Assembly (NCBI GenBank): GCA_964409365.1
Contig: CAYPCX010000004.1
Coordinates: forward strand, 21,015-85,014
Length of the DNA: 64,000 bases
Direction: 5' to 3'
From: an uncultured Planctomycetia bacterium
Lineage (GTDB): Bacteria; Omnitrophota; Gorgyraeia; Tantalellales; Tantalellaceae
Shown here: positions 17 through 13,928 of the stretch, piece after piece
Layout of the letters: each line of letters begins with the position of its first letter
Position numbering within the stretch: position 1 is the first letter of the stretch
Notes under the pieces: generated by a model
What the model was told of the DNA's origin: nothing
Databases searched by the model: none
The model's input: only the letters and a program-made list of their open reading frames with translations
Position numbers and translations under genes: made by a program

Positions 17-1402
17 ATGAAGAGGATAAGAAAACTGGACGATCTTGACGGTTACCTGGACGAATTGCACGCCCGTAAGCCGGGGGGGAGCTTTAAAAAG
101 AAGATCTCTTTTCTCGCTCTCCGCGACGAGGTGAGGAATTTAGCGCTTAAAGGCGGCGAAAAGCCCCTCTCGACGGATATCTACCAGCTGGTGATAATCC
201 CGGTAATGAAAGAGACGAAAGAGGTCATTGAACCCGGGATAAGGAGCCTTTACGAAGGCACGTTCCCGTCGAAGCAGATAATAGTGGCGCTCGCGCTGGA
301 AGAAAGGGCGAAAGATGAGGTCAAAAAAGGCGTAGAAGAAGTTTGCGCCTCTTACAGGGAGAGGTTCTTCGACATGTTCATAGTGGTGCATCCGGACGGG
401 ATAGCCGGCGAGGCGAAGGCCAAGGGGGCGAATACCACTTTTGCCGCAAAAAAAGCGGCGGAATACCTGACGGGAAAAGACATCCCTTACGGGAACGTCA
501 TATCTTCCTGTTTTGATTCGGATACTGTCGTTACGCCGGATTATTTCGCGGCTCTTACATATTATTACCTGACCTCTCCGGAAAGGGACCGCGCCAGTTT
601 CCAGCCGGTCCCGGTGTACAATAATAATATCTGGGATGCGCCGGGTATCACGCGTGTTCTTGAGACGGGCTCTTCTTTTTTCCAGCTCATCGAGGCCACC
701 AACCCGGAAAAATTAGTGACTTTTTCAAGTCATAGCATGAGCTTCAAGGCTCTTGTGGATGTCGGGTACTGGCCGGTGGACATGATCTCCGACGACTCGG
801 CCATATTCTGGAAAGCGTTCGTTCATTTCGACGGCCGGTACCACGTGGTACCGATGTACGCGACGCTTTCCATGGACGCGGTGGTGGCGGGCACGTGGTG
901 GCAGACCGTCATCAACGTTTATAAGCAGAAAAGGCGGTGGGCCTGGGGAGTGGAGAATTATCCTATAATAATGAGGGCTTTCCTGAAGGACAAACAAATA
1001 TCCTTTTTTGCCAAGCTGAAGCACTCTTTCAAGATGTTCGAGGGGCACATCTCATGGACCACCTGGGCGTTCCTTCTTACCATCATTGGATGGCTTCCGG
1101 CCATATTCGCGGGCAGGGCGTTCTCTCATTCTGTTTTTTATTATAGCGCGCCGCGCATAGCGGGAACGATATTTAACCTTGCTTCGTTCTCGCTTATAAC
1201 CAGCATAGTCCTCAGTTTGCTCCTTTTGCCGAAAAAGAAAGAGAGGCACCACATGTTGAAAAGGGCGGTATTCGCCTGCCAGTGGCTCCTGGTCCCGCTT
1301 ACGATAGTTTTTTTGAGCGCCCTGCCGGCCCTGGACGCGCAGACCAGGCTGATGCTGGGCAAATACATGACGTTCTGGGTGACGGATAAAGGAAGGAAAT
1401 GA
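17..1402 (+). CDS. Processive family-2 glycosyltransferase (cellulose/chitin-synthase-like); reading frame is open to window edge so may be 5'-partial
   Basis: GT-A core (LVIIPVMKE, DSD) and QKRRW (QxxRW) processivity motif followed by C-terminal TM helices; no in-frame stop between pos 2 and 17. Confidence 0.7.
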   Translation: MKRIRKLDDLDGYLDELHARKPGGSFKKKISFLALRDEVRNLALKGGEKPLSTDIYQLVIIPVMKETKEVIEPGIRSLYEGTFPSKQIIVALALEERAKDEVKKGVEEVCASYRERFFDMFIVVHPDGIAGEAKAKGANTTFAAKKAAEYLTGKDIPYGNVISSCFDSDTVVTPDYFAALTYYYLTSPERDRASFQPVPVYNNNIWDAPGITRVLETGSSFFQLIEATNPEKLVTFSSHSMSFKALVDVGYWPVDMISDDSAIFWKAFVHFDGRYHVVPMYATLSMDAVVAGTWWQTVINVYKQKRRWAWGVENYPIIMRAFLKDKQISFFAKLKHSFKMFEGHISWTTWAFLLTIIGWLPAIFAGRAFSHSVFYYSAPRIAGTIFNLASFSLITSIVLSLLLLPKKKERHHMLKRAVFACQWLLVPLTIVFLSALPALDAQTRLMLGKYMTFWVTDKGRK

Positions 1403-2511
1403 TCCAGGTTACAGGTTACAGGTTACAGGTTACAGGGGTGTGGCGGCGCAGGGTTTTTATATCTCTTGTTACCGCCGGGCTTGTATTTTTTCAGTCCGGA
1501 ACGGCGCATGCCAAGCCGCTGCGTATAGGCACGACTTTCAGCCCGCGCCAGTGCGTGTACCTGGGTATAAGCTGGAAAAAGGTCTACCTCGAGACGCTCG
1601 ATTACGGGTTCGATCTTATCCGGCTCGGCGCCTACTGGAGCGAGATAGAGAGAGCCGAAGGCGTTTATGATTTCACCATTCTGGACTGGCAGATCAAAAA
1701 GGCGAGAGAAAAAAGGATACCGGTAGTGCTTACGCTGGGAATGAAAGCGCCGCGCTGGCCCGAATATTATATACCGGACTGGGTACTGGAAAAAGTCACC
1801 CTTCCTTTGGGCATGGATGTGGCAAAAGACCCTTACCTGAGGGAGCGGACGCTCAAGTTCATCGAAAAGGTCGTGACCCGGTATAGAACGGAGAGGATCA
1901 TACTCTACTGGCAGGTGGAGAACGAGGCGCGCAACCATATCGGGACCAGATACTGGTATATCGGCAGTCATTTTCTCGGGCAGGAAGTCAGGCTGGTGCG
2001 CTCTCTCGACGGCAGAAAAAGGCCGATCATACTGACCGCGGCGACGTATCCCAACAAGATCATGCGTTTCATAGCGCGTATTTTCGTATGGCGGGACCCG
2101 TTCAAGGAATACGCGGAAATAGGCGATATTATCGGCCTGAATGTATATCCTGTAATAGGCCAGAAGATATGGCATATGGAGCGTTATTTCTTCTCCGGCG
2201 TGAAACAGCGAGAGAGTTACTACAAAGGCATTATTGATTATATAAAGGATATGGGCAAGGACGTATGGATAACGGAACTGCAGGCGGAGCCCTGGGAGCC
2301 GGGACAGTTGGTGTACAGGGCGCACGCGGTGCCGCCCACCGGGTGGCCCGAGATGACGAAGGAGTATTTCAGGGAGTTCCGCGAACTTGGGGTCGATACC
2401 ATACTTTTGTGGGGATGCGAATACTGGGCTTTCAGGAAGAAGGTGTTCGGATATGAGAAGTGGCCGGATACCGTACGCGGATTTTTGAAACAAAGGGAAG
2501 AAGTCGAATAA
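1399..2511 (+). CDS. Secreted TIM-barrel glycoside hydrolase (clan GH-A-like, GH5/GH42-type NE(A/P) acid-base motif)
   Basis: RBS ggaagga before ATG overlapping upstream stop (ATGA); signal-peptide-like RRRVFISLVTAGLVFFQSGTAHA; YWSEIE..G.YDF and WQVENEA motifs; alternative GTG start at 1438. Confidence 0.55.
   Translation: MIQVTGYRLQVTGVWRRRVFISLVTAGLVFFQSGTAHAKPLRIGTTFSPRQCVYLGISWKKVYLETLDYGFDLIRLGAYWSEIERAEGVYDFTILDWQIKKAREKRIPVVLTLGMKAPRWPEYYIPDWVLEKVTLPLGMDVAKDPYLRERTLKFIEKVVTRYRTERIILYWQVENEARNHIGTRYWYIGSHFLGQEVRLVRSLDGRKRPIILTAATYPNKIMRFIARIFVWRDPFKEYAEIGDIIGLNVYPVIGQKIWHMERYFFSGVKQRESYYKGIIDYIKDMGKDVWITELQAEPWEPGQLVYRAHAVPPTGWPEMTKEYFREFRELGVDTILLWGCEYWAFRKKVFGYEKWPDTVRGFLKQREEVE
1405..1432. 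repeat. (CAGGTTA)x4 heptanucleotide tandem array at 5' end of hydrolase gene
   Basis: perfect 7-nt period read directly; encodes VTGYRLQVTG if ATG 1399 is used. Confidence 0.9.
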
Positions 2512-2628
2512 GGGGGCGTGAAGGCGCCGCGCACCTTGCCAAAACAGTTTTTACATGATAATATTGGGGCGACTTTCAACGGCCCCCGATCGTTTCTAAA
2601 AAGTCCATATCAAAAGAAAGGAATCACA

Positions 2629-3669
2629 ATGAGAATAGGAATTATGGCCGCCTGGAACACCAACAGCGGGGTGGCCATGCATGCCGAACCCGTGGGGAAG
2701 GCCCTTATCGAGATGGGCCATAAAGTGACGGTGTTCACCTTCCACAAGAACGACTATCACGGGGAGTGGATAACAGCGAAAGATGAAAAATTCGTGAAAA
2801 GGTGTTTCGGCACAAGGACCGGCACGAACGCGCTCGATCCGCGCCCTTTCATGGAACATAAGTACGATATATTGGTGATAGAGGATATAGGCATGTTGCC
2901 GGTCGATAAGCTTAACAATATAATGTCGGTGGTCAAGAAAAAGGCGAAAGTGATACACGTGGTCCACGAGAACAAGATGTGCGATCACTCCTGGTTCTAT
3001 AAAGTAAACTTCGACCGCGTGGTCTATTTCGATCACAGGCAGGATTTCCTTAAAAAGGTTTACTCCGACGCGGTCTATATACCTTTCCCGTGCTATAAGC
3101 TGAGAAAGGGCAACAAAAAGACCGCCAGGAAAAGGCTCAACCTTCCCCTGGACAAGAAAATAATTTATTCTTTCGGACTGAGGGGATACCACTCGTATTA
3201 CCGGGACCTGCCTCCGAAACTTAAAAAAAAGGCGATCCTTTTACATGTCATTCCCAGGGGATACCAGATGCTCGAATCGCTCACACCGGAACCCTGGCGG
3301 ATCATAAGAACAGTGGGTTCCCTTTCTACGCGGGAGTTTGACGATTATCTTTTCGCTTCGGACGCCGCCATTTTTCACAAGTTCCAAAGCCGTTTTCACG
3401 CTGTGCTGTCATCCACCGTCTACCAGTCTCTCGGCACGGGGTGCCCTCTCTTCGTGCCGCAACAGTCGGATTTCTTCCACAATTTCAAGAACGAAGTGGT
3501 ACATTACAGGGATATAACCGCCCTGAACAAAAAGCTGAGCGATTACCTGGGGAGCACGCAAAAAAGGGATCGCCTTTACAAGGAGGCGGAGAAGTTCGTC
3601 ATAGCCCATTCCCCGAGGGCTATCGCCTGGGAGTTCACGAGGTTGTTCGAAGAGCTTTTAGGGCAGTAA
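2629..3669 (+). CDS. Putative GT-B fold glycosyltransferase (GT4-like)
   Basis: RBS aaagga before ATG 2629; N-terminal MRIGIMAAWNTNSGVAMH and C-terminal AS.AAIF...YQSLGTGCPLFVP resemble GT4 architecture; weak. Confidence 0.4.
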   Translation: MRIGIMAAWNTNSGVAMHAEPVGKALIEMGHKVTVFTFHKNDYHGEWITAKDEKFVKRCFGTRTGTNALDPRPFMEHKYDILVIEDIGMLPVDKLNNIMSVVKKKAKVIHVVHENKMCDHSWFYKVNFDRVVYFDHRQDFLKKVYSDAVYIPFPCYKLRKGNKKTARKRLNLPLDKKIIYSFGLRGYHSYYRDLPPKLKKKAILLHVIPRGYQMLESLTPEPWRIIRTVGSLSTREFDDYLFASDAAIFHKFQSRFHAVLSSTVYQSLGTGCPLFVPQQSDFFHNFKNEVVHYRDITALNKKLSDYLGSTQKRDRLYKEAEKFVIAHSPRAIAWEFTRLFEELLGQ

Positions 3670-3691
3670 GGGCGCAAGGTCAGCAAAAGAC

Positions 3692-4711
3692 ATGAAGATC
3701 CTCATCACCGGAGGGGCCGGGTTCATCGGGTGTAATGTCGGCAAGTTCTACCTCGAGAGGGGGGACGAGGTCATCATTCTGGACAATCTTTCCAGGAAAG
3801 GAGCTCCGTCCAATCTCGAATGGTTGAGATCCCTGGGAGACGTTCGGTTCATCAAGCAGGATATCCGTGATTTTGATGGGTTGAGGAACGCCGTGAAGGA
3901 ATGCGGCGAGGTCGACATCCTTTTCCACCTGGCCGCGCAGGTAGCGGTGACCACGTCCGTTGTAGAGCCGCGCGAAGATTTTGAAATAAACGCCCTTGGC
4001 ACGTTCAATCTACTTGAATCCGTCAGACAGAACGGCATGGACCCGGTCATCATATTCGCTTCGACTAACAAAGTCTACGGGGAAATGACGGACCTTGTCG
4101 TGGTGGAAGATGAAGGAAAATACCGCTATGCGGATATGCCTGAAGGGATACCCGAATCCAGGCAGCTCGATTTCCATTCGCCGTACGGATGCTCTAAGGG
4201 GTGCGCCGATCAGTATGCCGTGGATTATGCCAGGATATACGGCTTGAGGACCGTTTGCATGCGGCAATCATGCATTTACGGACCGAGGCAGTTCGGCGTG
4301 GAAGACCAGGGTTGGGTCGCCTGGTTCATTATAGCCACTGTGCTGGGGCATGCGCTGACCATTTACGGCGACGGAAAGCAGGTAAGGGATATACTCCATG
4401 TGCAGGACCTTGTGGAGCTTTTTCATCTCGTGTACGAGAACATAGACAGGGTCAAAGGCATGGCTTTCAACGTGGGCGGCGGAGCCGCGAACCAGATGTC
4501 GCTCCTGGAGCTGGTGGACTTTCTTGGGGAATGGTCCGGTGCAAGGTTGAACCCCGCGTTCGATGACTGGAGGCCCGGTGACCAGAAGATATATGTGAGT
4601 GACATCAACAGGGTTAAGGAATATCTCGGGTGGGAGCCCCGGATAGGAAAAGAGGAGGGCGTCCGGGCGCTATGGGACTGGGTAAAAGCAAACAGGACAT
4701 TATTTAAGTAA
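3692..4711 (+). CDS. NAD-dependent epimerase/dehydratase (SDR; CDP-paratose 2-epimerase / UDP-glucose 4-epimerase family)
   Basis: TGGAGFIG Rossmann motif, YGCSK (YxxxK) catalytic motif. Confidence 0.8.
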   Translation: MKILITGGAGFIGCNVGKFYLERGDEVIILDNLSRKGAPSNLEWLRSLGDVRFIKQDIRDFDGLRNAVKECGEVDILFHLAAQVAVTTSVVEPREDFEINALGTFNLLESVRQNGMDPVIIFASTNKVYGEMTDLVVVEDEGKYRYADMPEGIPESRQLDFHSPYGCSKGCADQYAVDYARIYGLRTVCMRQSCIYGPRQFGVEDQGWVAWFIIATVLGHALTIYGDGKQVRDILHVQDLVELFHLVYENIDRVKGMAFNVGGGAANQMSLLELVDFLGEWSGARLNPAFDDWRPGDQKIYVSDINRVKEYLGWEPRIGKEEGVRALWDWVKANRTLFK

Positions 4712-4760
4712 TTATAAACAATCCAGTTGCGCAATATTCTAACTTTTTATAAATTTTATT

Positions 4761-4788
4761 TTACAGGTTTCACGTTCTGTGATATAAT
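4761..4788 (+). promoter_or_regulatory. sigma70-like promoter (TTACAG-16-TATAAT, TG-extended) upstream of PilZ gene
   Basis: ttacag..tgtgatataat read in sequence 10 nt before ATG 4798. Confidence 0.4.
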
Positions 4789-4797
4789 ACAGGCACG

Positions 4798-5199
4798 ATG
4801 ACTGAAAGAAGGAAATGGAAAAGATACCCGATCGCCTACCCGATCGAGTGTGGGAGGGGGTGTAAGGACCCTTCTATTACATTGCGCGATATAAGTAAAG
4901 GGGGCGTCGCTTTTACTTCCGGTGAAGGTGTGCGTGAGGACGATAAGTTGGACCTGCGCATTTTCCTGAAGAACAGGATGTTCATCCTGAAAGCGATAGT
5001 GGTATACACCAAGAAGATAAAAGAGAAGATCTATAATACAGGCGTGAAGTTCTGTAACGCCCCGAAAGAGTTCCTTGCCATGCTAGAGAAAGAGATCGGA
5101 GAAATAACCGAGATCCACAGAGAAAGCAACCTTTACGAACATAAGGACATTTCTTTCAAAAAAGCTTCTGACGAATATCTTAAGAAGCCCTCCATTTAA
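4798..5199 (+). CDS. PilZ-domain c-di-GMP receptor
   Basis: RKWKR (RxxxR) and DISKGGVAF (DxSxGG) PilZ signature motifs. Confidence 0.75.
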   Translation: MTERRKWKRYPIAYPIECGRGCKDPSITLRDISKGGVAFTSGEGVREDDKLDLRIFLKNRMFILKAIVVYTKKIKEKIYNTGVKFCNAPKEFLAMLEKEIGEITEIHRESNLYEHKDISFKKASDEYLKKPSI

Positions 5200-5261
5200 G
5201 TCTTGCCGTTTTGACCGACGCTTATTTTATGGTATACTACTTCCTTGTAGGGGAGGTAATA

Positions 5262-7517
5262 GTGCCGTTTTCGGAACACGAAATAAAGCTTTTCGACCAG
5301 ATAATAAGAGACCTGGGGCTTGCCATAAAGAACAGCGTGCTGTATTCCACCGACCACCCCGTGTGCGCGCTTGCCATCAATAACCTCAAATCTTCGCTTG
5401 ACAAGTGGTTCCTGGGCAAGGACGGTTTTAATCTCGGGATATCCCAGGATGAACTTTTCCTCGATGGAGAGAACGTAAAAGAAAAGACCGAACGCTATAC
5501 CGAGATCGCGGAATATCTGCACCAGCGGGGGATAGTGTCCCTCGTTTTCCGGACGGGGCTGGACGAGAAAGGGTTAGAGGAATTTTTCGGCTTTATCAAG
5601 CAGGGCGGAAAGGAGATACGGAAAAAAGGGGGAATACGGAAGAACCTGAAAGCCATACCGCATCTTGAGATCAAAGAAGTGGATTACAGCGCGCTCTTGA
5701 CAAGCGCCAAAGGCGGCGGTAAGACCGACGAAGAAAAGATCTGGAAATTCCTTTTCGACGTGACGCAGGAAACCAAGGGAGGCGATATTCCCGAGTCGAA
5801 AGTGGAATTCATGGTGAACTTTTTCGAAAATACCGGCAACGCGGCGAAGGTCCTTAACAGGGTGTACAAGGAAGCGGTAAAGAACCTCCAGGACGAAGAG
5901 ACAGCGGAAGAGATACGCCATACGGTCGCGGAGATATGCAAGTATTTCGAAAAACGCTCCAAGCCCGAGGCGAAAAACCTCAAGGTCAAGCTTATGCATG
6001 TCGTTTCCCAGCTCCATCCGGACCTCATCAATACGCTCTTCGAGCAGACGGTGGTGGACGGCGAGACTTTCGACCTGGTGGAAGATATAACCAGGGATTT
6101 TTCGGACAGTTATATAGCCGGTTTTATCGAGACCCTTATAAGCGGGGAGGACACTTTCAACGAGAACCTGCTGAAGGTATTCGACAAGCTGGCTCCGGAC
6201 GCGCACAAGGCGGACAACGTCGTCGGGATGGTCGCGGACAAGCTTTTCCAGAAAAGGATCCTGAACCCCGACACCCTCTCCAAGCTTCAGATGTCCATCA
6301 AGGAGATATTCAGGGGCCATCCCGAAAGCAGTTTCATGACAGAGCTTTACAAAATAACGGTAGATGCCGTCGTCAACAAGAAGGTCGACACCCTCGTCTA
6401 TGTCGCGAGGCTTTCCCCTATCATAAACAAATTCGTTCAATCCATGGAGGAAGGCAAGCTGAAAAAGGAGGAGATATGGCTGCTCCTCAATATCCTCTGG
6501 CTCGAGAACGATTTTTCCGAGTTCGATAGATTCGGGCGCAAGATAGTGGATGTCCTCCCCGAGCTTCTCGACGGCCGGGAGATAGACAGGATAAAGGACA
6601 TACTGGAGTTTTTCACAGATAAGATGCGTCCCGAACAGAAAGAGGATGAAAAGATCTCGAAAGAAACACAGGAGGTGATGGAACAGATAACCACCAGGGA
6701 GATGAAGGACAGTGTTATCTCTTTCATACCTGACGCCACGCATACAGAGCTGGACGATATTACCGATATACTTAAAAGGTCCGGAGCCGGTTCGGCGAAA
6801 CAGCTTATAGACGCGTTCATTCAGGAAAAGAACCCGGCGCTCAGAAATAAATTCAGGACGGTGCTCTCCAGGATGAAAAAAGAGGTCTCGGAAGAGGTTA
6901 TAGACCGTCTGGAATACAGTGAACCGTACGTGATAAGGGACTTGTTCGGGATACTCAAGGAATACGCGCCCGAGAAGGCGCATCTGGTGGCCCTGAAACT
7001 CATAGTCCATAAGAACCCGCAGGTGCGCTGGGAAGGGCTGGAAGGATTTGAACCCGGGGATGGGGAAGAACTTGAGGCCGTTTTCAGGATGTTCAAGAGA
7101 GAAAGGGACAGGGAGGTCCAGAAAAAGGCGGCCGCGGTACTCTTGAAGACAAGGGATCCCGTTATAATCGAAAGGGTTTTCCGTTACGCGGAGAGGAGCT
7201 TCTTCAGGCCGGGGCTGCTTTTGCGGCTTGTCGAGCTTTGCGGGTATATCCGGTCACAGGAATCGTTCCCGCATCTTAAGAGGATATTCGTCAAGAGGCC
7301 GCTTATCAGCACGAAAAGAAGGGATGAGATCAGGGCGGCGGCGGTGACAAGTCTGGGCCGCCTTCACACGACACAGGCCATGGACCTCATAAAGCACGGT
7401 CTCAGGGATAAGCGGGAAAGGGTAAAAAAGATGTGCGAGATAATCCTTCTTCTCGATGAGAGGGGAGAAATAGAACAAGAGAGTAAAGAAGGTGGTGGCG
7501 ATGCCGGGAGAAGATAA
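5262..7517 (+). CDS. Large HEAT-repeat protein with N-terminal domain paralogous to the HD-GYP protein downstream (function unknown)
   Basis: GGGGAGG RBS 5 nt before GTG 5262 (ORF track begins at TTG 5211; ATG 5229 alternative); C-terminal HEAT-like repeats (NPQVRWEGLEG, DREVQKKAAAVLL, DEIRAAAVTSLGRL); overlaps next gene by 17 nt. Confidence 0.5.
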   Translation: MPFSEHEIKLFDQIIRDLGLAIKNSVLYSTDHPVCALAINNLKSSLDKWFLGKDGFNLGISQDELFLDGENVKEKTERYTEIAEYLHQRGIVSLVFRTGLDEKGLEEFFGFIKQGGKEIRKKGGIRKNLKAIPHLEIKEVDYSALLTSAKGGGKTDEEKIWKFLFDVTQETKGGDIPESKVEFMVNFFENTGNAAKVLNRVYKEAVKNLQDEETAEEIRHTVAEICKYFEKRSKPEAKNLKVKLMHVVSQLHPDLINTLFEQTVVDGETFDLVEDITRDFSDSYIAGFIETLISGEDTFNENLLKVFDKLAPDAHKADNVVGMVADKLFQKRILNPDTLSKLQMSIKEIFRGHPESSFMTELYKITVDAVVNKKVDTLVYVARLSPIINKFVQSMEEGKLKKEEIWLLLNILWLENDFSEFDRFGRKIVDVLPELLDGREIDRIKDILEFFTDKMRPEQKEDEKISKETQEVMEQITTREMKDSVISFIPDATHTELDDITDILKRSGAGSAKQLIDAFIQEKNPALRNKFRTVLSRMKKEVSEEVIDRLEYSEPYVIRDLFGILKEYAPEKAHLVALKLIVHKNPQVRWEGLEGFEPGDGEELEAVFRMFKRERDREVQKKAAAVLLKTRDPVIIERVFRYAERSFFRPGLLLRLVELCGYIRSQESFPHLKRIFVKRPLISTKRRDEIRAAAVTSLGRLHTTQAMDLIKHGLRDKRERVKKMCEIILLLDERGEIEQESKEGGGDAGRR

Positions 7518-8964
7518 AAGGCCGGAAGATACAAGACCTGACGATCTGAGAAGCCATGTGGAGGAAGCGATAGTGGCGTTTTCACGCGTCATGCAAGTGA
7601 GCGCCATGTACGGCGAAGCGCACCGGCTCACGGGAGAAGCCATAAACGACCTGTTCGTGAAGCTCGCGAGGGTCTTCATTGAAAGGGACGAGATGACAAT
7701 AGGGGTCATCGGCGACGAGATCGCTTTTGAAAAGGAACCTTTCTATGACGTAAGCGAAAGGATAAAGGGTTTTATCGACCACTTGAAGGAGATAGGGGTC
7801 AAAAAGATAAGTTTCGCCAGGGGGCTCAGCAAGGGGGAGCTTGCGGAGTTCAGCAAGGTGCTTACGATGAAGGCCGAGTTCCTCGAGAAGATGGGGGGCG
7901 TGGAAAAACTTTTCGAGCTGACGAATATACGTAATATAACGATAGGGGAACTGGGTTTTCGCAAAGGCGTGGGGGGTGAAGGACCGGAAGGAGGGCGTCC
8001 CGGCGGCGAAGCCGCGGCAATGGCCGCTATGGACGACGCGACCAAAAAGCAGTACCAGGAAGGCGTTGAGTACCTGTCGAAGACCTATAAGGAGATCAAG
8101 GGGAACCAGCCGATGAACGTCCAGTCCGCGCGGCAGATCGTGGACGGGATGATAAACAACCTCCTCAAGAACAAAAGCATGCTTCTTATGCTTACCTCTC
8201 TCCGGAGTCATGATGAAGGGGGGTTCGTTCACGGTGTCAATGTGACGATATTCACGCTTCTGCAGGCTGAGGTCCTCGGTATCGACAAGAAGTATCTTGC
8301 CGATATAGGCATGGCTTCGCTCCTGCATGACATAGGTAAGATCTCCGCTGCCGGCGAACAGGCAGGGCCGAAAGAAGAGGAGATGACGGAGGACGAAAAG
8401 TATGAAAGGTCCCAGCAGGACGTGCAGGGCGCGAAAATACTTCTCGAGATGGAAGGCATAGGCGTCCTGCCGGCGATAGCTGCCTTTGAGCATGGTATAT
8501 CGTACGACATGTCGGGGCACCCGAAGAAGCTTTACGGTAAGGACGAGCTCAACCTTGTCAGCATGATGATAGCCATATCCGAATACTACGATAAGTTGCG
8601 GACAAGCCCCGAATACCACGAAGAAGGCGGTCCCGAAAAGGCGTACGAGGATATGATGAAGCATTCCGGGACGAAATTTCACCCGGATCTTGTTAAGAAC
8701 TTCTTTTCCCTGATAGGGGTCTATCCTCCCGGAACGCTGGTCGAACTGGACACGGGAGAGATCGCGCTTGTCATCCAGGCCAGCATGCTCGATATCAAAC
8801 GCCCGCAGGTCGAAATACTCTATGACAAGAAAGGGGACAAGCTGGAAGAACCGCGCATTGTCAATCTTCTCGAGAAAGACCAGAAAGGGAAGTATAAGTG
8901 GAGCATAGTAAGATCGATATCGCCTGTAGATAAATTCAACCTTCCGGAGAAATATACCAAATGA
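7501..8964 (+). CDS. HD-GYP-family phosphohydrolase-like protein with degenerate GYP motif (GHP)
   Basis: RSHDEGGFVHGVNV...LLHDIGKI HD motifs; FEHGISYDMSGHPKKL in place of HHExxDGxGYP; RBS aaggtgg before ATG 7501. Confidence 0.7.
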   Translation: MPGEDKRPEDTRPDDLRSHVEEAIVAFSRVMQVSAMYGEAHRLTGEAINDLFVKLARVFIERDEMTIGVIGDEIAFEKEPFYDVSERIKGFIDHLKEIGVKKISFARGLSKGELAEFSKVLTMKAEFLEKMGGVEKLFELTNIRNITIGELGFRKGVGGEGPEGGRPGGEAAAMAAMDDATKKQYQEGVEYLSKTYKEIKGNQPMNVQSARQIVDGMINNLLKNKSMLLMLTSLRSHDEGGFVHGVNVTIFTLLQAEVLGIDKKYLADIGMASLLHDIGKISAAGEQAGPKEEEMTEDEKYERSQQDVQGAKILLEMEGIGVLPAIAAFEHGISYDMSGHPKKLYGKDELNLVSMMIAISEYYDKLRTSPEYHEEGGPEKAYEDMMKHSGTKFHPDLVKNFFSLIGVYPPGTLVELDTGEIALVIQASMLDIKRPQVEILYDKKGDKLEEPRIVNLLEKDQKGKYKWSIVRSISPVDKFNLPEKYTK

Positions 8965-10727
8965 AAATGCGTTTAAAGATCACCATATCTTTCTTTGCGG
9001 CCGGGTTTGTCCTTGCGGGGATAGGGTGGCTGGTCATAGTGCTGGGGCAGCCTGCCTTGGTGATGTTTGTGGCCATTCCGCTGGCGGCTCTTATTGTCGG
9101 GCTTTTTACGGGCGGGGTGGTCTTCAGGAACCTCGCGGGAGTGGCGAAAGGGGCCAGTATCGTGCGTTCTGGCAGTCTGGAGTACAAGATCGGCACGAAG
9201 GCCAACGACGAGGTCGGCCAGATCTCGAGGGATATTGACGGTATCGCGGAAGACCTGAAAAAAGCGCGTTTTTCGATCGACGTGCTTAACATGGAAAGGA
9301 CCAGGTTCGACAAGACCGAGAAAGAGCTCTCGGCAAGAGAGGAACACTTCAGGAATCTTTTTGAACATTCTAACGACGCGGTCTTTATACATGATCTTGA
9401 CGGAAAGCTCATAGACGTGAACAACAAGGCATGCGAGATGCTGGGTTACGATAAAGAAACGCTCCTGGGGATACCCTTCATGGATCTGCAGACAGAGGAA
9501 GAGCTTACCAGCTCCAAAGAGGCGCGCAGGATAGGCGATGAAAAGTGCGCGGTGCGTTTCGAATCCAAACTCAGGAAGGTCGACGGGGTGCCTATTAACG
9601 TCGAGATCAGTTCCAGCGTGGTGGACCTTAAGAAGGGGATAATGCAGGCGATAGTCCGCGATATAACCGAACGAAAAAAGCTGGAAGAGGCGCTGAAGGA
9701 GTCCGAGGAAAAATTCCGCACGTTCATGGAAACGGCCAGCGATCTGATGTACATAACAAGCAAATACGGCGAGCTGAAATACGTGAACCAGACCATGGCG
9801 AGCGCGCTCGGCTATACGGTTCAAGAGATGCAGGGAGGCATGCACATCACCGATATCATGGAGGACAAGACAAAAGAGGCCTTTAAGGGGCAGCACAGGC
9901 AGCTGGTCACGAACGGGGAAGTAATGTATGAGCCTGTCTGGGAGACCAAGAACCGGAGGAAGATCTACGGGGAAGTCAAAGAAAGCTCCATTTATGATAT
10001 GCAAGGCAGGTTTGCCGGGAGCAGGGGGGTCTTTCGTGATATAACCGAACGCAAGAAGATCGAAGAAGCCCAGCGGCTGGCGCAGCTGGGGAAACTGGCC
10101 GCTGACGTGGCGCATGAGGTGAACAACCCGGTGACAGTTATCTCGGCAAGGGCCCAGCTTTACCTGCGGGATGAAAAGGTTGACGAAAAGATCAAGAAGA
10201 ACCTTGAAATAATAGTCCAGCAGTGCGAGCAGGCCCAGAGCATCGTGCACAGGCTGCTCAAATTTTCCAAGCCCAGCAGAGGCGAGATAAAGGAGATAGA
10301 TATAAACGATACGATCAAAAGCGTGATAAACCTGGTAGAACCGCACTTCCGCGGTTCCGCGGTACGCCTGGCCACGGAACTCATGCCGTCACCTTCCCGC
10401 GTAAAGGCGGATGAAAAACATATGCAGGAAGTTTTCATGAACCTTCTCAGGAACGCCGCCGAAGCTATGCCGGACGGAGGCACGGTCACGGTGAAGACAT
10501 CGCTGGACGGTGATAATGTCCGCATAGATTTTATTGATACCGGCAGCGGGATCGCGGAAGAGGACCTGAAAAGGATATTCGACCCGTTCTTCACTACAAA
10601 AGAGAACGGGACCGGCCTGGGCCTTTCTGTTTGTTACGGCATACTCAAGAGCCACGGCGGCGACCTGAAGTATAAGTCCAGGCCGGGCGAAGGCACTACC
10701 GCCACTGTTCTTCTCCCCGCCGGGTAG
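8961..10727 (+). CDS. Membrane PAS/PAS sensor histidine kinase (HAMP, 2x PAS, HisKA, HATPase)
   Basis: N-terminal 2 TM; PAS signatures (NDAVFIHDLDGKLIDVNNKACEMLGY); H-box AHEVNNPVT; G-box GTGLGLSV; ATGA overlap with upstream gene. Confidence 0.85.
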   Translation: MKMRLKITISFFAAGFVLAGIGWLVIVLGQPALVMFVAIPLAALIVGLFTGGVVFRNLAGVAKGASIVRSGSLEYKIGTKANDEVGQISRDIDGIAEDLKKARFSIDVLNMERTRFDKTEKELSAREEHFRNLFEHSNDAVFIHDLDGKLIDVNNKACEMLGYDKETLLGIPFMDLQTEEELTSSKEARRIGDEKCAVRFESKLRKVDGVPINVEISSSVVDLKKGIMQAIVRDITERKKLEEALKESEEKFRTFMETASDLMYITSKYGELKYVNQTMASALGYTVQEMQGGMHITDIMEDKTKEAFKGQHRQLVTNGEVMYEPVWETKNRRKIYGEVKESSIYDMQGRFAGSRGVFRDITERKKIEEAQRLAQLGKLAADVAHEVNNPVTVISARAQLYLRDEKVDEKIKKNLEIIVQQCEQAQSIVHRLLKFSKPSRGEIKEIDINDTIKSVINLVEPHFRGSAVRLATELMPSPSRVKADEKHMQEVFMNLLRNAAEAMPDGGTVTVKTSLDGDNVRIDFIDTGSGIAEEDLKRIFDPFFTTKENGTGLGLSVCYGILKSHGGDLKYKSRPGEGTTATVLLPAG

Positions 10728-10744
10728 AATTTGCCCTTGCCTAA

Positions 10745-10772
10745 ATCATGTGCTATGTTATAATCTTTTTTA
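10745..10772 (+). promoter_or_regulatory. sigma70-like promoter (TTGCCT-16-TATAAT) upstream of tRNA-Phe region
   Basis: ttgcct aaatcatgtgctatgt tataat read in sequence. Confidence 0.4.
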
Positions 10773-10776
10773 ACCG

Positions 10777-10970
10777 GCGCCACGGTAGCTCAGCAGGTTC
10801 CCCGAACCCTTTTAGGGTTCGGGATAAAAGCAACCGGGCAGTCTCATTTTCCCCGAACCCTTTCAGGGTTCGGGATAAATTCGGCCATACAACTTATGTT
10901 CGCTGGCGCTCCATAAGTTGTGGCCTCATTTAGAGCAGGGATTTGGCATATAGAGGACTTGGCATTGTGG
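10777..10970 (+). repeat. Pseudo-tRNA-Phe fragment (5' 22 nt of tRNA-Phe duplicated) interrupted by two 33-bp palindromic direct repeats and a third hairpin
   Basis: ggcgccacggtagctcagcaggt at 10777 is identical to the 5' end of the intact tRNA at 10970; tagagcaggg fragment at 10931; repeats ttccccgaaccctttNagggttcgggataaa at 10798 and 10849. Confidence 0.6.
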
Positions 10971-10971
10971 C

Positions 10972-11047
10972 GCCACGGTAGCTCAGCAGGTAGAGCAGGG
11001 GACTGAAAATCCCTGTGTCGGTGGTTCGATTCCGCCCCGTGGCACCA
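10972..11047 (+). tRNA. tRNA-Phe (GAA)
   Basis: cloverleaf by eye; near-identical to E. coli tRNA-Phe core (AGAGCAGGGGAcTGAAAATCCC...GGTTCGATTCC); CCA encoded. Confidence 0.9.
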
Positions 11048-11054
11048 TTTTATT

Positions 11055-11089
11055 AAAAAACCCGGCTAATATTACAGCCGGGTTTTTTG
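11055..11089 (+). terminator. Rho-independent terminator (cccggct-N8-agccggg + T6), bidirectional-looking
   Basis: A-run, 7-bp GC stem, T-run read in sequence. Confidence 0.7.
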
Positions 11090-11514
11090 TTAATTCGGTT
11101 CTTCATAGGGGGAAACGAGAGTTTCCCCCTCTTGACGGTCGCTTCGCGACCTGTCACCCCCTTCCCATAGGTTTTAAGGAATCATGCCTGCTTTCTGGAT
11201 CAAAGAAGAAGGGGGAAGTATATCCCCCTTCTTCTTTGGAATAATATTCCCCTAAATTTGTGCTTTACTTTATATTATTGCTGGATGGGACAGGCCCCCT
11301 CAAGTTGTCTCTAGGATCGCATGCCACGTGTCGGGACCTTAGCTCGCTATGCTGGCGCTGGGGCGGTTACCGCTCCTTGTCCATGGTATTGCAGGAACGA
11401 CGAGGCGGGATTTTGTTCTGTTTTAAGACAAGATACAATATGTTCGGGTTGAGGGCTAGATCACTCGAAGAAACTTGAAAAAAGCCGAAGAGCCTCGTGT
11501 TCCATCTGTAAACC

Positions 11515-11730
11515 ATACGTAACCAGTTCCCAGTAACCAGTTCCCAGTAACCAGTAACCAGTAACCAGTAACAAGGAAAAAGGAAAAAGGAAAAAGTATC
11601 AAGTGTTGAGTTGTGAGTTGTTAGTCATGAGTTGTACGACTCAATACTAAGAACTAAAAGCTAACAACTAATATCTTCCAGGCATCTACGTTCTTCTGTC
11701 CTCTGTCTTCTGACCTCTGTTTTCTGACAC
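11515..11730. repeat. Composite heptad-array element: (CCAGTAA/CCAGTTC)n-(AGGAAAA)3-120-bp core (IR-L 11596..11715)-(NNCTGNN)5
   Basis: 7-nt periodicity throughout; core is the reverse complement of 18411..18530 (about 94% identity by eye). Confidence 0.85.
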
Positions 11731-11791
11731 CTGCGACCTTTCATCCCCCTCAAGTTGTATCTGGAATAGCAAGCCAGTATACTTACAAGAG

Positions 11792-12547
11792 ATGAAAGGG
11801 CCTTATTTGCTGGTGATCGGTTTTGTGGCGGGGTTTGCGAGCGGCGCGTTCGGGATTGGCGGGGGAGTGGTCATGGTCCCGGCGCTGGTACTCATCTGCA
11901 GGTATGAGATCAAGAAAGCCATTGGTATATCCCTGGCGACGATAGTTCCCACTGCCCTTGTGGGGGCCCTCACGCATTACCTGATATGTAGCAGTAATAT
12001 CGAATTCCCGGTGGTCCTTCTGGTCTCTCCCGGCGCTATTGCCGGCGCCTGGGTCGGGGCCAGGCTGGGGAACAGGCTCAGCAGCAGGCTGCTGTCCGGG
12101 CTGTTCGCCCTGTTTCTGACGTTCGTGGGCCTGAAACTCATGGGTATAGTTAGATTACCGATCAGTGTGCTCTCGAGTACGGCTGTCCACCCCGGGCTGG
12201 TCCTCCTTGGTCTGGCCGCCGGGGTTTGCTCGGCCCTGTTAGGGATAGGAGGAGGCGTCGTGATGGTGCCCTTTCTGAACCTTTTGTTCGGCCTTGGGAT
12301 ACACGAGGCCATAGCGACATCGCTCACGATCGTCGTGCCGACCACTTTTGCCGGGGCCGTGTTCCATAGGAGGCTGAATAACCTGGATGCCGGGCCCTTG
12401 AAATACCTGGTGCCGGCCGCTTTTCTTGGGGTCATCCTGGGAGCCGTTACGGCCAATTGTCTGTCGCAAGAGGTTTTAAAGGTCGCTTTCGGGGTCCTCA
12501 TGGTCCTGTGTTCTGTTAAGCTTTTTCTTGAAAAAAAACACCTTTGA
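11792..12547 (+). CDS. TauE/SafE (DUF81) sulfite/anion exporter family membrane protein
   Basis: two internal repeats each with GxGGGxxxxP motif (FGIGGGVVMVPAL; GIGGGVVMVPFL). Confidence 0.85.
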   Translation: MKGPYLLVIGFVAGFASGAFGIGGGVVMVPALVLICRYEIKKAIGISLATIVPTALVGALTHYLICSSNIEFPVVLLVSPGAIAGAWVGARLGNRLSSRLLSGLFALFLTFVGLKLMGIVRLPISVLSSTAVHPGLVLLGLAAGVCSALLGIGGGVVMVPFLNLLFGLGIHEAIATSLTIVVPTTFAGAVFHRRLNNLDAGPLKYLVPAAFLGVILGAVTANCLSQEVLKVAFGVLMVLCSVKLFLEKKHL

Positions 12548-12573
12548 TTATACAATCTATCGCATGTAGCGGA

Positions 12574-12649
12574 GCCAGCGTAGCTCAGTTGGCAGAGCAA
12601 GGCATTCGTAATGCCTAGGTCGGTGGTTCGAATCCACTCGCTGGCTCCA
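12574..12649 (+). tRNA. tRNA-Thr (CGT)
   Basis: cloverleaf; anticodon loop ATTCGTAAT; closely resembles E. coli tRNA-Thr(CGU); CCA encoded. Confidence 0.85.
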
Positions 12650-12668
12650 CAGTTTTACCATTCCTGAC

Positions 12669-13928
12669 ATGGCTCGTTTTCGAGACGTCCTTTTTAAAAG
12701 GAACTTCTTTTCCCTGTGGTCCGGCCAGATCATATCCGAATTCGGTGACCGTTTGAACCAGATGGCATTGATCTCGCTTGTCTATTCAAAAAGCCCCGGA
12801 TCCGTCATGGCCATGGCCAATCTGCTTTTTTTCATCGTTATACCCGTGTTCGTCATAGGGCCGGTGGCGGGCGTGTATGTCGACAGATGGGACCGCAAAA
12901 GGGTCATGATCATATCCGATATAATCAGGGGACTCCTGGTGCTGGCCGTACCGGTCTTTGTGCGTCTTGACCTGATGTGGCCGGTGTACATAATAGTATT
13001 CCTTATCTTTTCGGCCACGAGATTTTTTCTTCCCTCCAAACTGGCGTTGATCCCGACGATAGTGGCAAAGGATGATCTGGTCGTGGCCAATTCGCTTTCC
13101 AACACCACCCGCATGATCGCCACCATTCTCGGTTTTGCCCTGGCCGGGTTCATAGTAAAGTGGATAGGGTACATGTGGGGTTTTTATCTGGACAGCATGA
13201 GTTATTTTATTTCGGCCGGTTTTATAGCGATCATTACCCCGAAAAGGAAACTCGTCAACGTGCGGGAAGAGATCCAGATGACGGGAGAGATAATATCAAG
13301 ATCCATCAGAAGGAACGTATGGGGCGAGATAGTCGAGGGGATCGGTCATATGATGGGAAAAAGCAAGATGAGGGTGGTTACCAGCTCCTTGTTCCTTTTG
13401 ATGGCCGGCGCCGGATCGATCTTCTGTATCATCATAGTCTTTATCCAGCAGGCGTTCGGGTCTATAACCGAGGATCTGGGTCTTCTCGGGGTGTTCCTTG
13501 GCGCGGGGCTTTTCCTGGGTACCATCGTTTACGGAAAGTATGGCCAGAAGATGTCGAAGATACGCGCGATATTCGTCTGTTTCGGCCTTAGCGGCGTTGC
13601 GATCTCGCTTTTCGCGCTTTATTCAAGCAGGGACCCTGTTTTTCTGGTAGGAGGGCTCTTGATCATGCTTGTCGGGGCGGCGGTCGCCCCCATATTGACC
13701 TGCACCAACGTTTTGATACATACCCTTGTACCCGACGAGGTAAGGGGACGCATATTCAGCTCGATGGAGGCGGTCATGCACCTTGCGTTTATCGTGTTCA
13801 TGTTCATGACGGCGTATCTTTCCAAGCACGTGTCAAACCTGACGATATTACTGGCCAGCGGAACGATGTTCATAATAATCGGTTTTACGGGACAGGCCTT
13901 TTTCTCGGGGGGAAGGGCCGGAGGCTAA
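12669..13928 (+). CDS. MFS transporter (12 TM)
   Basis: hydrophobicity pattern and MFS-type loop motif VDRWDRKRVM between TM2 and TM3. Confidence 0.8.
   Translation: MARFRDVLFKRNFFSLWSGQIISEFGDRLNQMALISLVYSKSPGSVMAMANLLFFIVIPVFVIGPVAGVYVDRWDRKRVMIISDIIRGLLVLAVPVFVRLDLMWPVYIIVFLIFSATRFFLPSKLALIPTIVAKDDLVVANSLSNTTRMIATILGFALAGFIVKWIGYMWGFYLDSMSYFISAGFIAIITPKRKLVNVREEIQMTGEIISRSIRRNVWGEIVEGIGHMMGKSKMRVVTSSLFLLMAGAGSIFCIIIVFIQQAFGSITEDLGLLGVFLGAGLFLGTIVYGKYGQKMSKIRAIFVCFGLSGVAISLFALYSSRDPVFLVGGLLIMLVGAAVAPILTCTNVLIHTLVPDEVRGRIFSSMEAVMHLAFIVFMFMTAYLSKHVSNLTILLASGTMFIIIGFTGQAFFSGGRAGG

Follow-up and report, generated by a model that had tools for sequence, protein, structure and literature searches.

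This locus raises the question of whether four neighboring genes, encoding a PilZ protein, a HEAT/alpha-solenoid protein, an HD-GYP-family protein and a TM-HAMP-PAS-PAS histidine kinase, form a single c-di-GMP operon that controls an exopolysaccharide (EPS) cluster, as a first-pass annotation had proposed. The genes lie on the forward strand of a 64-kb stretch of DNA (the window) from an uncultured Omnitrophota bacterium, in which they fall into two adjoining units. The genes were judged to be real, and all four domain calls were confirmed against Pfam and NCBIfam.

The first unit (17-5199) appears to be an EPS cluster of GT2 synthase, glycoside hydrolase, GT4, and epimerase genes that ends with the PilZ gene, which has a promoter-like site of its own. 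The GT2 gene (17-1402; Pfam Glyco_trans_2_3) encodes a processive-type glycosyltransferase, and its 5' end lies outside the window: the ORF has no in-frame stop upstream, and its orthologue at locus L021 is 86 N-terminal residues longer. The GT2 was 65% identical to residues 87-547 of that orthologue and 76% identical to its counterpart at L090. As had been noted earlier, it contains a QKRRW motif and no PilZ domain, and the same was found for the full-length L021 orthologue. The GT2 gene is followed by a glycoside-hydrolase-like gene (1399-2511; N-terminal region of Pfam Glyco_hydro_42, 38 bits; 57% identity with the L090 orthologue), a GT4-like glycosyltransferase gene (2629-3669, likely starting at M38 of the 2518 ORF; weak GT4/GT1 Pfam matches; 68% identity with the 346-aa L090 orthologue), and an NDP-sugar epimerase/dehydratase gene (3692-4711; Pfam Epimerase, 170 bits; 70.5% identity with the L090 orthologue). 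The final gene, encoding the stand-alone PilZ (4798-5199), is preceded by a promoter-like site (4760-4788; TTTACA-17-TATAAT with TG) that agrees with the consensus at 11 of 12 positions; the promoter calls reported here are consensus matches, and their regional count was not above the shuffled expectation.

The second unit (5262-10727), predicted to be a translationally coupled three-gene signalling module, is separated from the end of PilZ at 5199 by a 62-nt gap that contains another promoter-like consensus match (5211-5238; TTGACC-16-TATACT with TG). Its first gene (5262-7517) encodes the HEAT/alpha-solenoid partner and starts with a GTG at 5262, which lies downstream of GGGGAGG and yields a protein of 751 aa, in agreement with database protein P0121. 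The second gene (7501-8964; 487 aa) encodes a degenerate HD-GYP protein, hereafter the HD protein, and its start at 7501 agrees with database protein P0001. The third gene (8961-10727) encodes a membrane-anchored sensor histidine kinase. The HEAT and HD genes overlap by 17 nt, and the HD and kinase genes overlap by 4 nt, with the kinase start codon overlapping the HD stop codon (ATGA). The earlier description of four translationally coupled genes fits these three overlapping genes and does not extend to PilZ, which neither overlaps nor abuts the HEAT gene.

We examined the distribution of this HEAT-HD-kinase triad and found it in ~30 loci, nearly all of which lack PilZ and EPS genes. In all 58 distinct loci having upstream sequence, including those of Actinomycetota, Desulfobacterota, and Bdellovibrio relatives, the HD gene was directly preceded by a partner gene. 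HD proteins were classed as degenerate when H250, H277, and R314 were lost (positions are numbered by PmGH, the alignment reference), and canonical members, such as those of L005 and L030, kept all scorable positions (H189, H221, D222, H250, H276, H277, and D305). An orthologous kinase, full-length and with 40-58% identity, was encoded immediately downstream of the degenerate HD gene in 31 of the 32 determinable loci, whereas only one of ~20 canonical HD genes had a downstream kinase, which was of an unrelated dCache type. In a neighbor-joining tree, the degenerate-plus-kinase loci formed one clade, nested among two-gene pairs of an N-domain/HEAT partner and a canonical HD-GYP from several phyla, and the HEAT, HD, and kinase proteins diverged in step. 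Some members of the clade had lost the HD dyad itself (NN, KD, or HN), with the triad kept. Judged from gene order and divergence, the HEAT-HD-kinase set is an autonomous, co-inherited, and co-evolving triad. On the tree topology, the loss of catalytic residues coincides with the gain of the kinase, and this association comes from one evolutionary transition, not from many independent ones.

The PilZ protein (133 aa) matched PF07238 over aa 3-96 with 36.0 bits (cutoff, 22.5) and ends in a conserved C-terminal tail of ~35 aa. Its c-di-GMP motifs, R5-K-W-K-R9 (with R4) and D31-I-S-K-G-G36, were intact, as the first-pass annotation had stated for this stand-alone receptor, and were identical or conservatively altered in aligned orthologues, with RRKWKR and DISKGG kept at L021 and DVSSGG present at L089. 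PilZ was syntenic with the GT2, GT4, and epimerase genes wherever the upstream region was readable (the window, L021, L089, L090/L091, and L092), and at L089 the GT4-like orthologue lies directly 5' of PilZ. L090, the closest syntenic relative found, matches the window in gene order on both sides and reads EPS-PilZ-...-MFS-Rnf without the triad, and in one MAG the PilZ contig (L092) differs from the triad contig (L010). The best reading of these data is that PilZ serves as the putative c-di-GMP receptor of the EPS cluster and travels with the EPS genes rather than with the triad. The order GT2-PilZ-HEAT-HD-HK recurs at L021, and PilZ is found near the triad at L023. Among the loci compared, the adjacency of the triad to PilZ and the EPS genes is lineage-specific (the window, L021, and perhaps L023) and not a conserved operon. 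It may reflect a shared c-di-GMP/biofilm regulon; because PilZ adjoins the triad in two or three loci, the two units may also be functionally coupled to some degree.

PilZ-dependent exopolysaccharide synthases include BcsA, with its C-terminal PilZ domain, and the GT2 Alg8, with the PilZ protein Alg44. Like these, the PilZ studied here is genetically linked to the cluster of a processive GT2 (QxxRW), with conserved synteny in five loci; unlike BcsA and Alg44, it is free-standing and cytoplasmic, being neither fused to the synthase nor anchored in the membrane. By analogy, PilZ would bind c-di-GMP and most likely activate or license the GT2 synthase post-translationally. Of the earlier proposal that kinase-set c-di-GMP levels control the GT2 through PilZ, the link from PilZ to the synthase is reasonable, given the intact PilZ motifs and the synteny with EPS genes in every readable locus; the part assigned to the kinase was not supported, as described below.

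We investigated the HD protein by comparison with the GAF-HD-GYP protein PmGH of Persephonella marina, an active tri-iron c-di-GMP phosphodiesterase (PDB 4mcw) that, of all solved structures, matched it best in sequence (E 5.7e-6). The HD protein consists of an N-terminal domain (N-domain; aa 14-152), two long helices, the HD-GYP core (~aa 240-405), and a C-terminal beta-domain (~aa 406-475), and its HD-GYP fold was recovered in profile searches. Three metal ligands are changed (H250Q, H277G, and D305E), as are two substrate ligands (R314P and K317H, in a loop that reads SPEYH), and GYP has become GHP (Y285H); in place of HHExxDGxGYP the sequence is FEHGISYDMSGHP. The retained residues are H189, H221, D222, K225 (the HDxGK Lys), H276, D308, and the Tyr316 equivalent. 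The full set of metal ligands (E185, H189, H221, D222, H250, H276, H277, and D305) is not present; the E185 equivalent falls outside the alignment, and a near-invariant Glu is found at H189-5. The HD motifs, previously called intact, are so in the HD dyad only, and the GYP-to-GHP change, on which emphasis had been placed earlier, is the least consequential: in PmGH, Y285A barely affects activity, whereas H250A and H277A abolish it (PMC4159591). Across the degenerate clade, the GYP Tyr position varies (P, G, H, S, F, L, I, V, and others), and Pro predominates at the R314 position. Since the core lacks two metal-binding His residues and the substrate Arg, the HD protein is predicted to be a pseudo-phosphodiesterase, and for the degenerate clade, the label "HD-GYP domain c-di-GMP phosphodiesterase" is probably incorrect. 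Identity in the HD core was 0.54 within the degenerate clade versus 0.56 within the canonical clade, which indicates that the degenerate core is still under purifying selection.

A precedent for such a protein is DvhD of Desulfovibrio vulgaris, a dCache-PAS-degenerate HD-GYP protein (PDB 9rbz/9rc0) that acts as a metal-free c-di-GMP receptor (PMC13090378). The binding-only role that the first-pass annotation had offered as an alternative would fit both the residue losses and this precedent. DvhD differs, however, in being a membrane receptor that controls a periplasmic protease (Lap-like), in its substitutions (HD to SQ and HH to MN), and in lacking an N-domain, a HEAT partner, and a kinase. 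It also keeps the c-di-GMP-binding Arg (R650) and the GYP Tyr, both of which are changed in the HD protein; of the contacts made in DvhD-like receptors, the HDxGK Lys and the loop Tyr are kept. Because the Arg that contacts c-di-GMP (R314 in PmGH and R650 in DvhD) is replaced by Pro and the GYP Tyr by His, canonical c-di-GMP binding by the HD protein is doubtful.

The N-terminal regions of the HEAT and HD proteins had been called paralogous, and this was confirmed by BLASTP (27% identity over 120 aa, E 2e-9) and by hhalign profile-profile alignment (141 columns, probability 97.4%, E 1e-11). In the 751-aa HEAT protein, the N-domain spans ~aa 5-148 (nt 5274-5705) and is followed by a helical region and the HEAT region, which was identified by profile match and by its solenoid fold. 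The N-domain is predicted to begin with two long helices, and it gave no match in Pfam, NCBIfam, or PDB sequences. The family comprised 6,634 cluster representatives (50%-identity clusters), among them five proteins of GGDEF-AAA_16-N-domain-HEAT (GGDEF-STAND-HEAT) architecture and one of N-domain-PAS-HisKA-HATPase architecture. By these database comparisons, the N-domain family is undescribed and uncurated. Membership in the family of Bd1817 of Bdellovibrio bacteriovorus (DUF3391 plus degenerate HD-GYP; PDB 3tm8) was considered and rejected: DUF3391 (PF11871) gave no match at E<=0.1 on the full HD protein or at E<=1 on 34 N-domains, and the published DUF3391 has four beta-strands followed by two helices, the opposite of the predicted order here. 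Bd1817 also lacks a paired HEAT gene and a kinase. An anti-phage defence system was likewise rejected, as PADLOC models gave only a spurious 19-bit Csn2 match on the HEAT protein.

The kinase contains two TM helices without a periplasmic domain, followed by HAMP, PAS, PAS, HisKA (52 bits), and HATPase_c (99.5 bits). The phospho-acceptor His and the N, G1, and G2 boxes of HATPase_c were all found (motifs VAHEVNNP, DTGSGI, and GTGLGL). No response regulator is encoded beside it, as had been reported earlier: tblastn with three REC proteins detected none in the 64-kb window, and Pfam searches of the large ORFs of the window found no REC, GGDEF, or EAL. In a sister subclade, the triad is followed by a hybrid HK-REC plus a REC. 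With no GGDEF or EAL in the window and an HD-GYP protein that lacks H250 and H277, two His ligands whose replacement by Ala abolishes the activity of PmGH, no gene of the locus could set c-di-GMP levels, contrary to the role that had been proposed for the PAS kinase pathway.

The explanation that we favor, to which we give about an even chance, is that two units lie side by side: an EPS cluster with its PilZ receptor and a pseudo-phosphodiesterase/HEAT complex that gates a kinase. Through their paralogous N-domains of ~140 aa, the HEAT and HD proteins would most likely pair, and together they would control the downstream kinase, which is predicted to sense in the cytoplasm through PAS-PAS. The pseudo-phosphodiesterase is most likely a ligand-binding or protein-binding regulatory subunit, with c-di-GMP or a related nucleotide, bound in an altered mode, as a possible ligand. 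The phosphorelay partners, a hybrid HK-REC and a single REC in the sister subclade, are presumed to be encoded elsewhere in this genome. The triad would have arisen a single time, in Omnitrophota and uncultured lineages related to them, from a widespread pair of an N-domain/HEAT partner and a catalytically canonical N-domain HD-GYP. In the c-di-GMP-controlled histidine kinases CckA, ShkA, and RavS, c-di-GMP binds the kinase itself. The triad shares with them the concept of a cyclic dinucleotide signal that feeds a His-Asp phosphorelay, but its putative sensor is a separate pseudo-phosphodiesterase/HEAT pair.

We weighed three alternatives. One, which we consider unlikely, places the triad outside c-di-GMP signalling altogether: its pseudo-HD-GYP would bind no nucleotide and would act for the kinase only as a structural adaptor or, via the N-domain or the C-terminal beta-domain, as a sensor of another cue. 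In its favor, the Arg and Tyr with which PmGH and DvhD contact c-di-GMP are lost or variable, conservation is highest in the C-terminal beta-domain (identity 0.64) and not in the nucleotide pocket, and a Y and an H are invariant in the N-domain. Against it, the HDxGK Lys and the Tyr316 equivalent are kept, conservation of the HD core matches that in active relatives, fusion or pairing of the N-domain family with GGDEF and HD-GYP domains is seen repeatedly, and PilZ/EPS adjacency recurs. It is improbable that the HD protein is still an enzyme (a "trigger enzyme") in which a remodelled and probably mononuclear metal site (H..HD..E) hydrolyses c-di-GMP, pGpG, or some other nucleotide, its kinetics or specificity being altered, and whose activity the HEAT partner and kinase regulate or respond to. 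The retained H189, H221/D222, K225, and H276, with Glu at D305, amount to the minimal arrangement (H..HD..D) seen in mononuclear HD hydrolases, so residual or altered hydrolysis is conceivable; D308 is also kept, the core is strongly conserved in the clade, and the ancestral pairs have fully canonical HD-GYPs. Against an enzyme stand the inactivity of the PmGH H250A and H277A mutants and the replacement of the substrate ligands R314 and K317 by P and H. Moreover, NN or KD replaces the HD dyad in close relatives with the same triad (L007/L027, L008, and L009), so that the conserved function of the clade cannot rest on that metal site. The single four-gene operon, in which the PAS kinase sets c-di-GMP levels via HD-GYP and PilZ switches the upstream GT2 on, was considered quite improbable, since, despite intact PilZ motifs, a common strand with short gaps, and the gene orders at L021 and L023, the triad stands without PilZ/EPS in ~30 loci and PilZ with EPS genes stands without the triad at L089, L090/L091, and L092, PilZ and HEAT are not translationally coupled, the window contains no DGC or active PDE, and the HD protein lacks H250, H277, and any REC domain for kinase control.

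The reading of two adjoining units leads to a broader and more tentative proposal, possible yet short of probable: the N-domain family would mediate obligate HD-GYP/HEAT pairing, and in one Omnitrophota-centred clade the phosphodiesterase would have turned into a pseudoenzyme upon capturing a PAS kinase, giving a new kind of three-protein sensor. If so, a dinucleotide-binding pseudo-phosphodiesterase/HEAT complex would convert second-messenger status into His-Asp phosphorelay output. To our knowledge, no arm of c-di-GMP signalling is less well understood than the HD-GYP proteins, and the roles of their accessory domains are largely open. An abundant accessory N-domain, outside Pfam, NCBIfam, and PDB by sequence, appears to tie HD-GYP to a dedicated HEAT partner across several phyla, and a stand-alone PilZ appears to be a constant component of a polysaccharide cluster in Omnitrophota. 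Each protein either is soluble or contains soluble domains, and heterologous expression should be possible even though the organisms are uncultured. One gene family spans a natural series that runs from an active enzyme to a conserved pseudoenzyme, in which the switch coincides with the recruitment of a histidine kinase, suggesting a route by which a second-messenger enzyme may become a phosphorelay sensor subunit.

The start of the locus carries an exopolysaccharide (EPS) cluster on the forward strand, comprising a GT2 gene (17-1402), a GH-like gene (1399-2511), a GT4-like gene (~2629-3669), and an NDP-sugar epimerase gene (3692-4711). The start of the GT2 gene is cut by the window edge; its ORF continues past the window start, and its orthologues are ~86 residues longer at the N terminus. 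The GT4-like ORF is open from 2518, and its start is probably M38 (nt 2629), judging from 345-346-aa orthologues at two other loci (L089 and L090). There follow, on the same strand, the PilZ gene (4798-5199; Pfam PilZ, 36 bits) and three genes that we refer to as the triad (5262-10727). These encode a 751-aa HEAT protein (5262-7517; Pfam HEAT_2 at aa 701-741 only), a 487-aa HD-GYP-family protein (7501-8964), and a 588-aa histidine kinase (8961-10727; Pfam two PAS, HisKA, and HATPase_c). The assignment of the HD domain held in the profile search (Pfam HD_5, 37 bits), and NCBIfam added nothing specific to Pfam for the locus proteins.

The first-pass annotation had described PilZ and the triad as four translationally coupled genes. 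Coupling was found within the triad, where the HEAT and HD genes overlap by 17 nt, with the HD start taken from an identical database protein (P0001), and the HD and kinase genes overlap by 4 nt. It did not extend to PilZ, the stop codon of which lies 62 nt from the start of the HEAT gene, a GTG at 5262 preceded by GGGGAGG (751 aa, as in the database protein P0121). A promoter-like consensus match was found within this 62-nt gap, and a better one, with 11 of 12 matches and a TG, was found before PilZ. The sites fall in the expected gaps, and their total count is not above the shuffled expectation, so they serve as hints only.

Nearly all homologues of the locus proteins came from Candidatus Omnitrophota; some belonged to KSB1 or to unclassified MAGs. 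The remaining genes of the window are diderm housekeeping genes (Rnf, purine genes, FtsH, DnaB, BamA, LpxC, and LpxI). Among the large ORFs of the 64-kb window, Pfam detected no GGDEF, EAL, or REC domain. The reported lack of a response regulator beside the kinase was confirmed for the whole window by tblastn and Pfam. The only Rfam matches in the window were tRNAs, and no riboswitch was detected close to the locus. Membership in a defence system was rejected, as PADLOC gave no meaningful match.

We examined the neighbourhoods of PilZ orthologues. The PilZ motifs RRKWKR (RxxxR) and DISKGG (DxSxxG) are intact, as originally noted, and proved to be conserved in orthologues of 42-61% identity. 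These orthologues are rare: the protein search yielded eight clusters, and a metagenome scan with the PilZ pair returned a single 2-kb locus, L089, in which a GT4 orthologue is followed by PilZ and an unrelated gene. At L090 and L091, PEGA, GT2, GH, and trehalose genes, GT4, two epimerases, and PilZ are followed by PMT_2/TPR, ferritin, MFS, and Rnf genes; the orthologues on both sides are 57-76% identical to the window genes, and the triad is absent. Window 4798-13928 is syntenic with L090 10001-14589 at 50-76% identity, with EPS/PilZ on one side and MFS/Rnf on the other. Between PilZ and MFS, the window carries the triad, tRNA-Phe, TauE, and tRNA-Thr, and L090 carries a PMT_2/TPR glycosyltransferase and a ferritin-like protein. 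At L092, epimerases precede PilZ on a contig separate from that of the triad (L010) of the same MAG. A PEGA protein, an orthologous GT2 (65% identity), and PilZ (53% identity) precede the triad at L021, and at L023 a fragment of PilZ lies on the edge of the contig, 1.4 kb upstream of the triad, with an opposite-strand gene in between. The triad thus adjoins PilZ in the window and at L021, and perhaps at L023. These neighbourhoods indicate that PilZ is the final gene of the EPS cluster and that the triad is a separate unit. The proposal of one c-di-GMP operon was therefore abandoned in favour of an EPS cluster that has a PilZ receptor of its own, beside a conserved pseudo-HD-GYP/HEAT/kinase module. 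Overall, the first-pass annotation was confirmed in part, and its interpretation was supported in part.

To define the state of the HD core, we aligned the HD protein to the active phosphodiesterase PmGH of Persephonella marina (4mcw), whose ligands are established from its structure and by mutagenesis. The first-pass annotation had reported intact HD motifs with GYP replaced by GHP. The HD dyad is indeed kept and GHP is real, but the degeneration goes further: H189, H221/D222, K225, H276, and D308 (PmGH numbering) are retained, and the substitutions are H250Q, H277G, and D305E, together with P/H at the substrate ligands R314/K317. Since PmGH activity is abolished by H250A and H277A and not by Y285A (PMC4159591), GHP is the least important of these changes. 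About one-third of the 120 closest homologues are fully canonical (HHDKHHH..GYP..R), and the others have degenerated at the same sites, in some cases with the HD dyad itself replaced by NN, KD, or HN. The proteins of loci L005 and L030 are examples of canonical family members. Mean pairwise identity of the HD core is 0.54 in the degenerate clade and 0.56 in the canonical clade, above the 0.39 of the N-terminal domain, and purifying selection is evident. This equal conservation points to a pseudoenzyme that is maintained and not decaying. Some residual mononuclear hydrolase activity may persist in the HD protein, but near relatives without the HD dyad still keep the entire triad, an argument against catalysis as the conserved function. 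The small C-terminal beta-domain of the HD protein (aa ~406-475, window 8716-8925; GVYPPGTLVELD...RPQVEILYD) shows the highest conservation (mean identity 0.64) and also occurs in ordinary HD-GYP proteins without the N-terminal domain, from Marinobacter and other Gammaproteobacteria.

Seven further loci were obtained by exact protein look-up, and all of them contained a HEAT protein of ~735-753 aa, the HD gene, and a sensor kinase in this order; PilZ or EPS genes were found upstream of the triad in none of the seven. We then extended the survey to one genome per GTDB species, using the HD alignment as the query, and read the loci with HMMs built from our own alignments. A partner gene with the N-terminal domain lay immediately upstream of the HD gene in all 58 distinct loci having upstream sequence. 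The distant partners in Actinomycetota, Desulfobacterota, and Bdellovibrio are ~560 aa long and consist of the N-terminal domain and HEAT_2. Degenerate HD genes were followed by a kinase gene at -55 to +382 nt in 31 of the 32 determinable loci, and canonical HD genes in a single exception, with an unrelated kinase of the dCache-HAMP type. Throughout the degenerate clade the kinase is a full-length orthologue (40-58% identity, ~99% coverage), and its divergence parallels that of the HEAT and HD proteins. A neighbour-joining tree grouped the degenerate-plus-kinase loci in a single clade that nests within canonical Omnitrophota pairs, which rules out many independent events. These results indicate that HD degeneration and kinase gain were one evolutionary transition, kept through deep divergence. 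One triad subclade, which is not that of the window, has genes for a hybrid HK-REC and for a lone REC downstream; at L002 this pair spans 11239-13414. A 521-aa protein with no Pfam match is encoded directly upstream of the HEAT gene at L008 (5041-6606) and 3.5 kb upstream of it at L007 (1619-3184).

The suggested paralogy of the HEAT and HD N termini was borne out by BLASTP (27% identity over 120 residues, E 2e-9) and by comparison of the family profiles, which aligned 141 columns with 97.4% probability (E 1e-11). In predicted structures of both proteins, this ~140-aa N-domain has a pLDDT above 90 and is modelled as two long helices and a beta-hairpin followed by alternating helices and strands. 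One Tyr and one His are invariant in both paralogue families. The N-domain gave no Pfam match even at E ≤ 1 (34 members), no NCBIfam match, and no credible match to PDB chain sequences; hits to the artificial protein Octarellin and weak hits to beta-alpha units were judged spurious. DUF3391, a known N-terminal partner of HD-GYP, was ruled out by the lack of a Pfam match and by its secondary structure, which opens with four beta-strands instead of two long helices. A profile search of 1.84 billion representatives recovered 6,634 proteins at E ≤ 1e-3, of which 2,173 reached E ≤ 1e-10. In addition to the HD-GYP and HEAT architectures, they include one N-domain-PAS-HisKA-HATPase protein and five GGDEF-AAA_16(STAND)-N-domain-HEAT proteins of 1,000-1,435 aa (P0255, P0303, P0339, P0346, and P0352). 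The latter, in which the N-domain appears as two matched stretches, are in effect a diguanylate cyclase fused to a HEAT-type partner.

In the window, the triad sits in a variable segment between the EPS/PilZ and MFS/Rnf blocks, which further contains tRNA-Phe, a duplicated 23 nt of the tRNA 5' end, and palindromic repeats. The exact 23-nt copy of the tRNA-Phe(GAA) 5' end follows the kinase gene directly and precedes the intact tRNA by 193 nt (10776-10880 and 10969-11047), with two 31-nt palindromic repeats (TTCCCCGAACCCTTTYAGGGTTCGGGATAAA) in between. A rearrangement or insertion may have left this region as a scar at the border of the triad-bearing variable segment. A promoter-like site (10737-10764) and a terminator-like hairpin (11050-11093) were also observed. 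A 32-nt direct repeat of 84% identity (11295-11326 and 11745-11776) surrounds a 450-bp non-coding stretch upstream of TauE that contains short tandem repeats of GTAACCA/GTTCCCA and AAGGAAA units (11519-11574). Elsewhere, a giant ORF of 2,897 aa (23345-32038, forward strand) combines a region resembling acyltransferases with a Ser/Thr protein kinase domain and a domain like the alpha-CTD of RNA polymerase. At L007, a Pkinase protein of 2,841 aa is encoded ~8.5 kb downstream of the triad.

We propose that the HEAT and HD proteins form a complex through their N-domains, in which the HD protein, having lost c-di-GMP hydrolysis, would act as a regulatory or sensing subunit, and that this complex would control the kinase. 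Because the kinase has two TM helices and practically no periplasmic loop, it would have to sense cytoplasmic or membrane cues. High c-di-GMP would let PilZ license the GT2 synthase. The metal-free degenerate HD-GYP protein DvhD is a high-affinity c-di-GMP receptor that uses R650 and the GYP Tyr (PMC13090378), whereas both contacts are replaced in the HD protein, which keeps the HDxGK Lys and a loop Tyr; its ligand may be c-di-GMP or another molecule. A literature search found no paper on HEAT/HD-GYP pairing or on HD-GYP with HEAT repeats and a histidine kinase. The components of the locus are of known kinds; what appear to be undescribed are the N-domain family common to the HEAT and HD proteins, the obligate pairing with a HEAT protein, and a switch from enzyme to pseudoenzyme that is coupled to the capture of a kinase.
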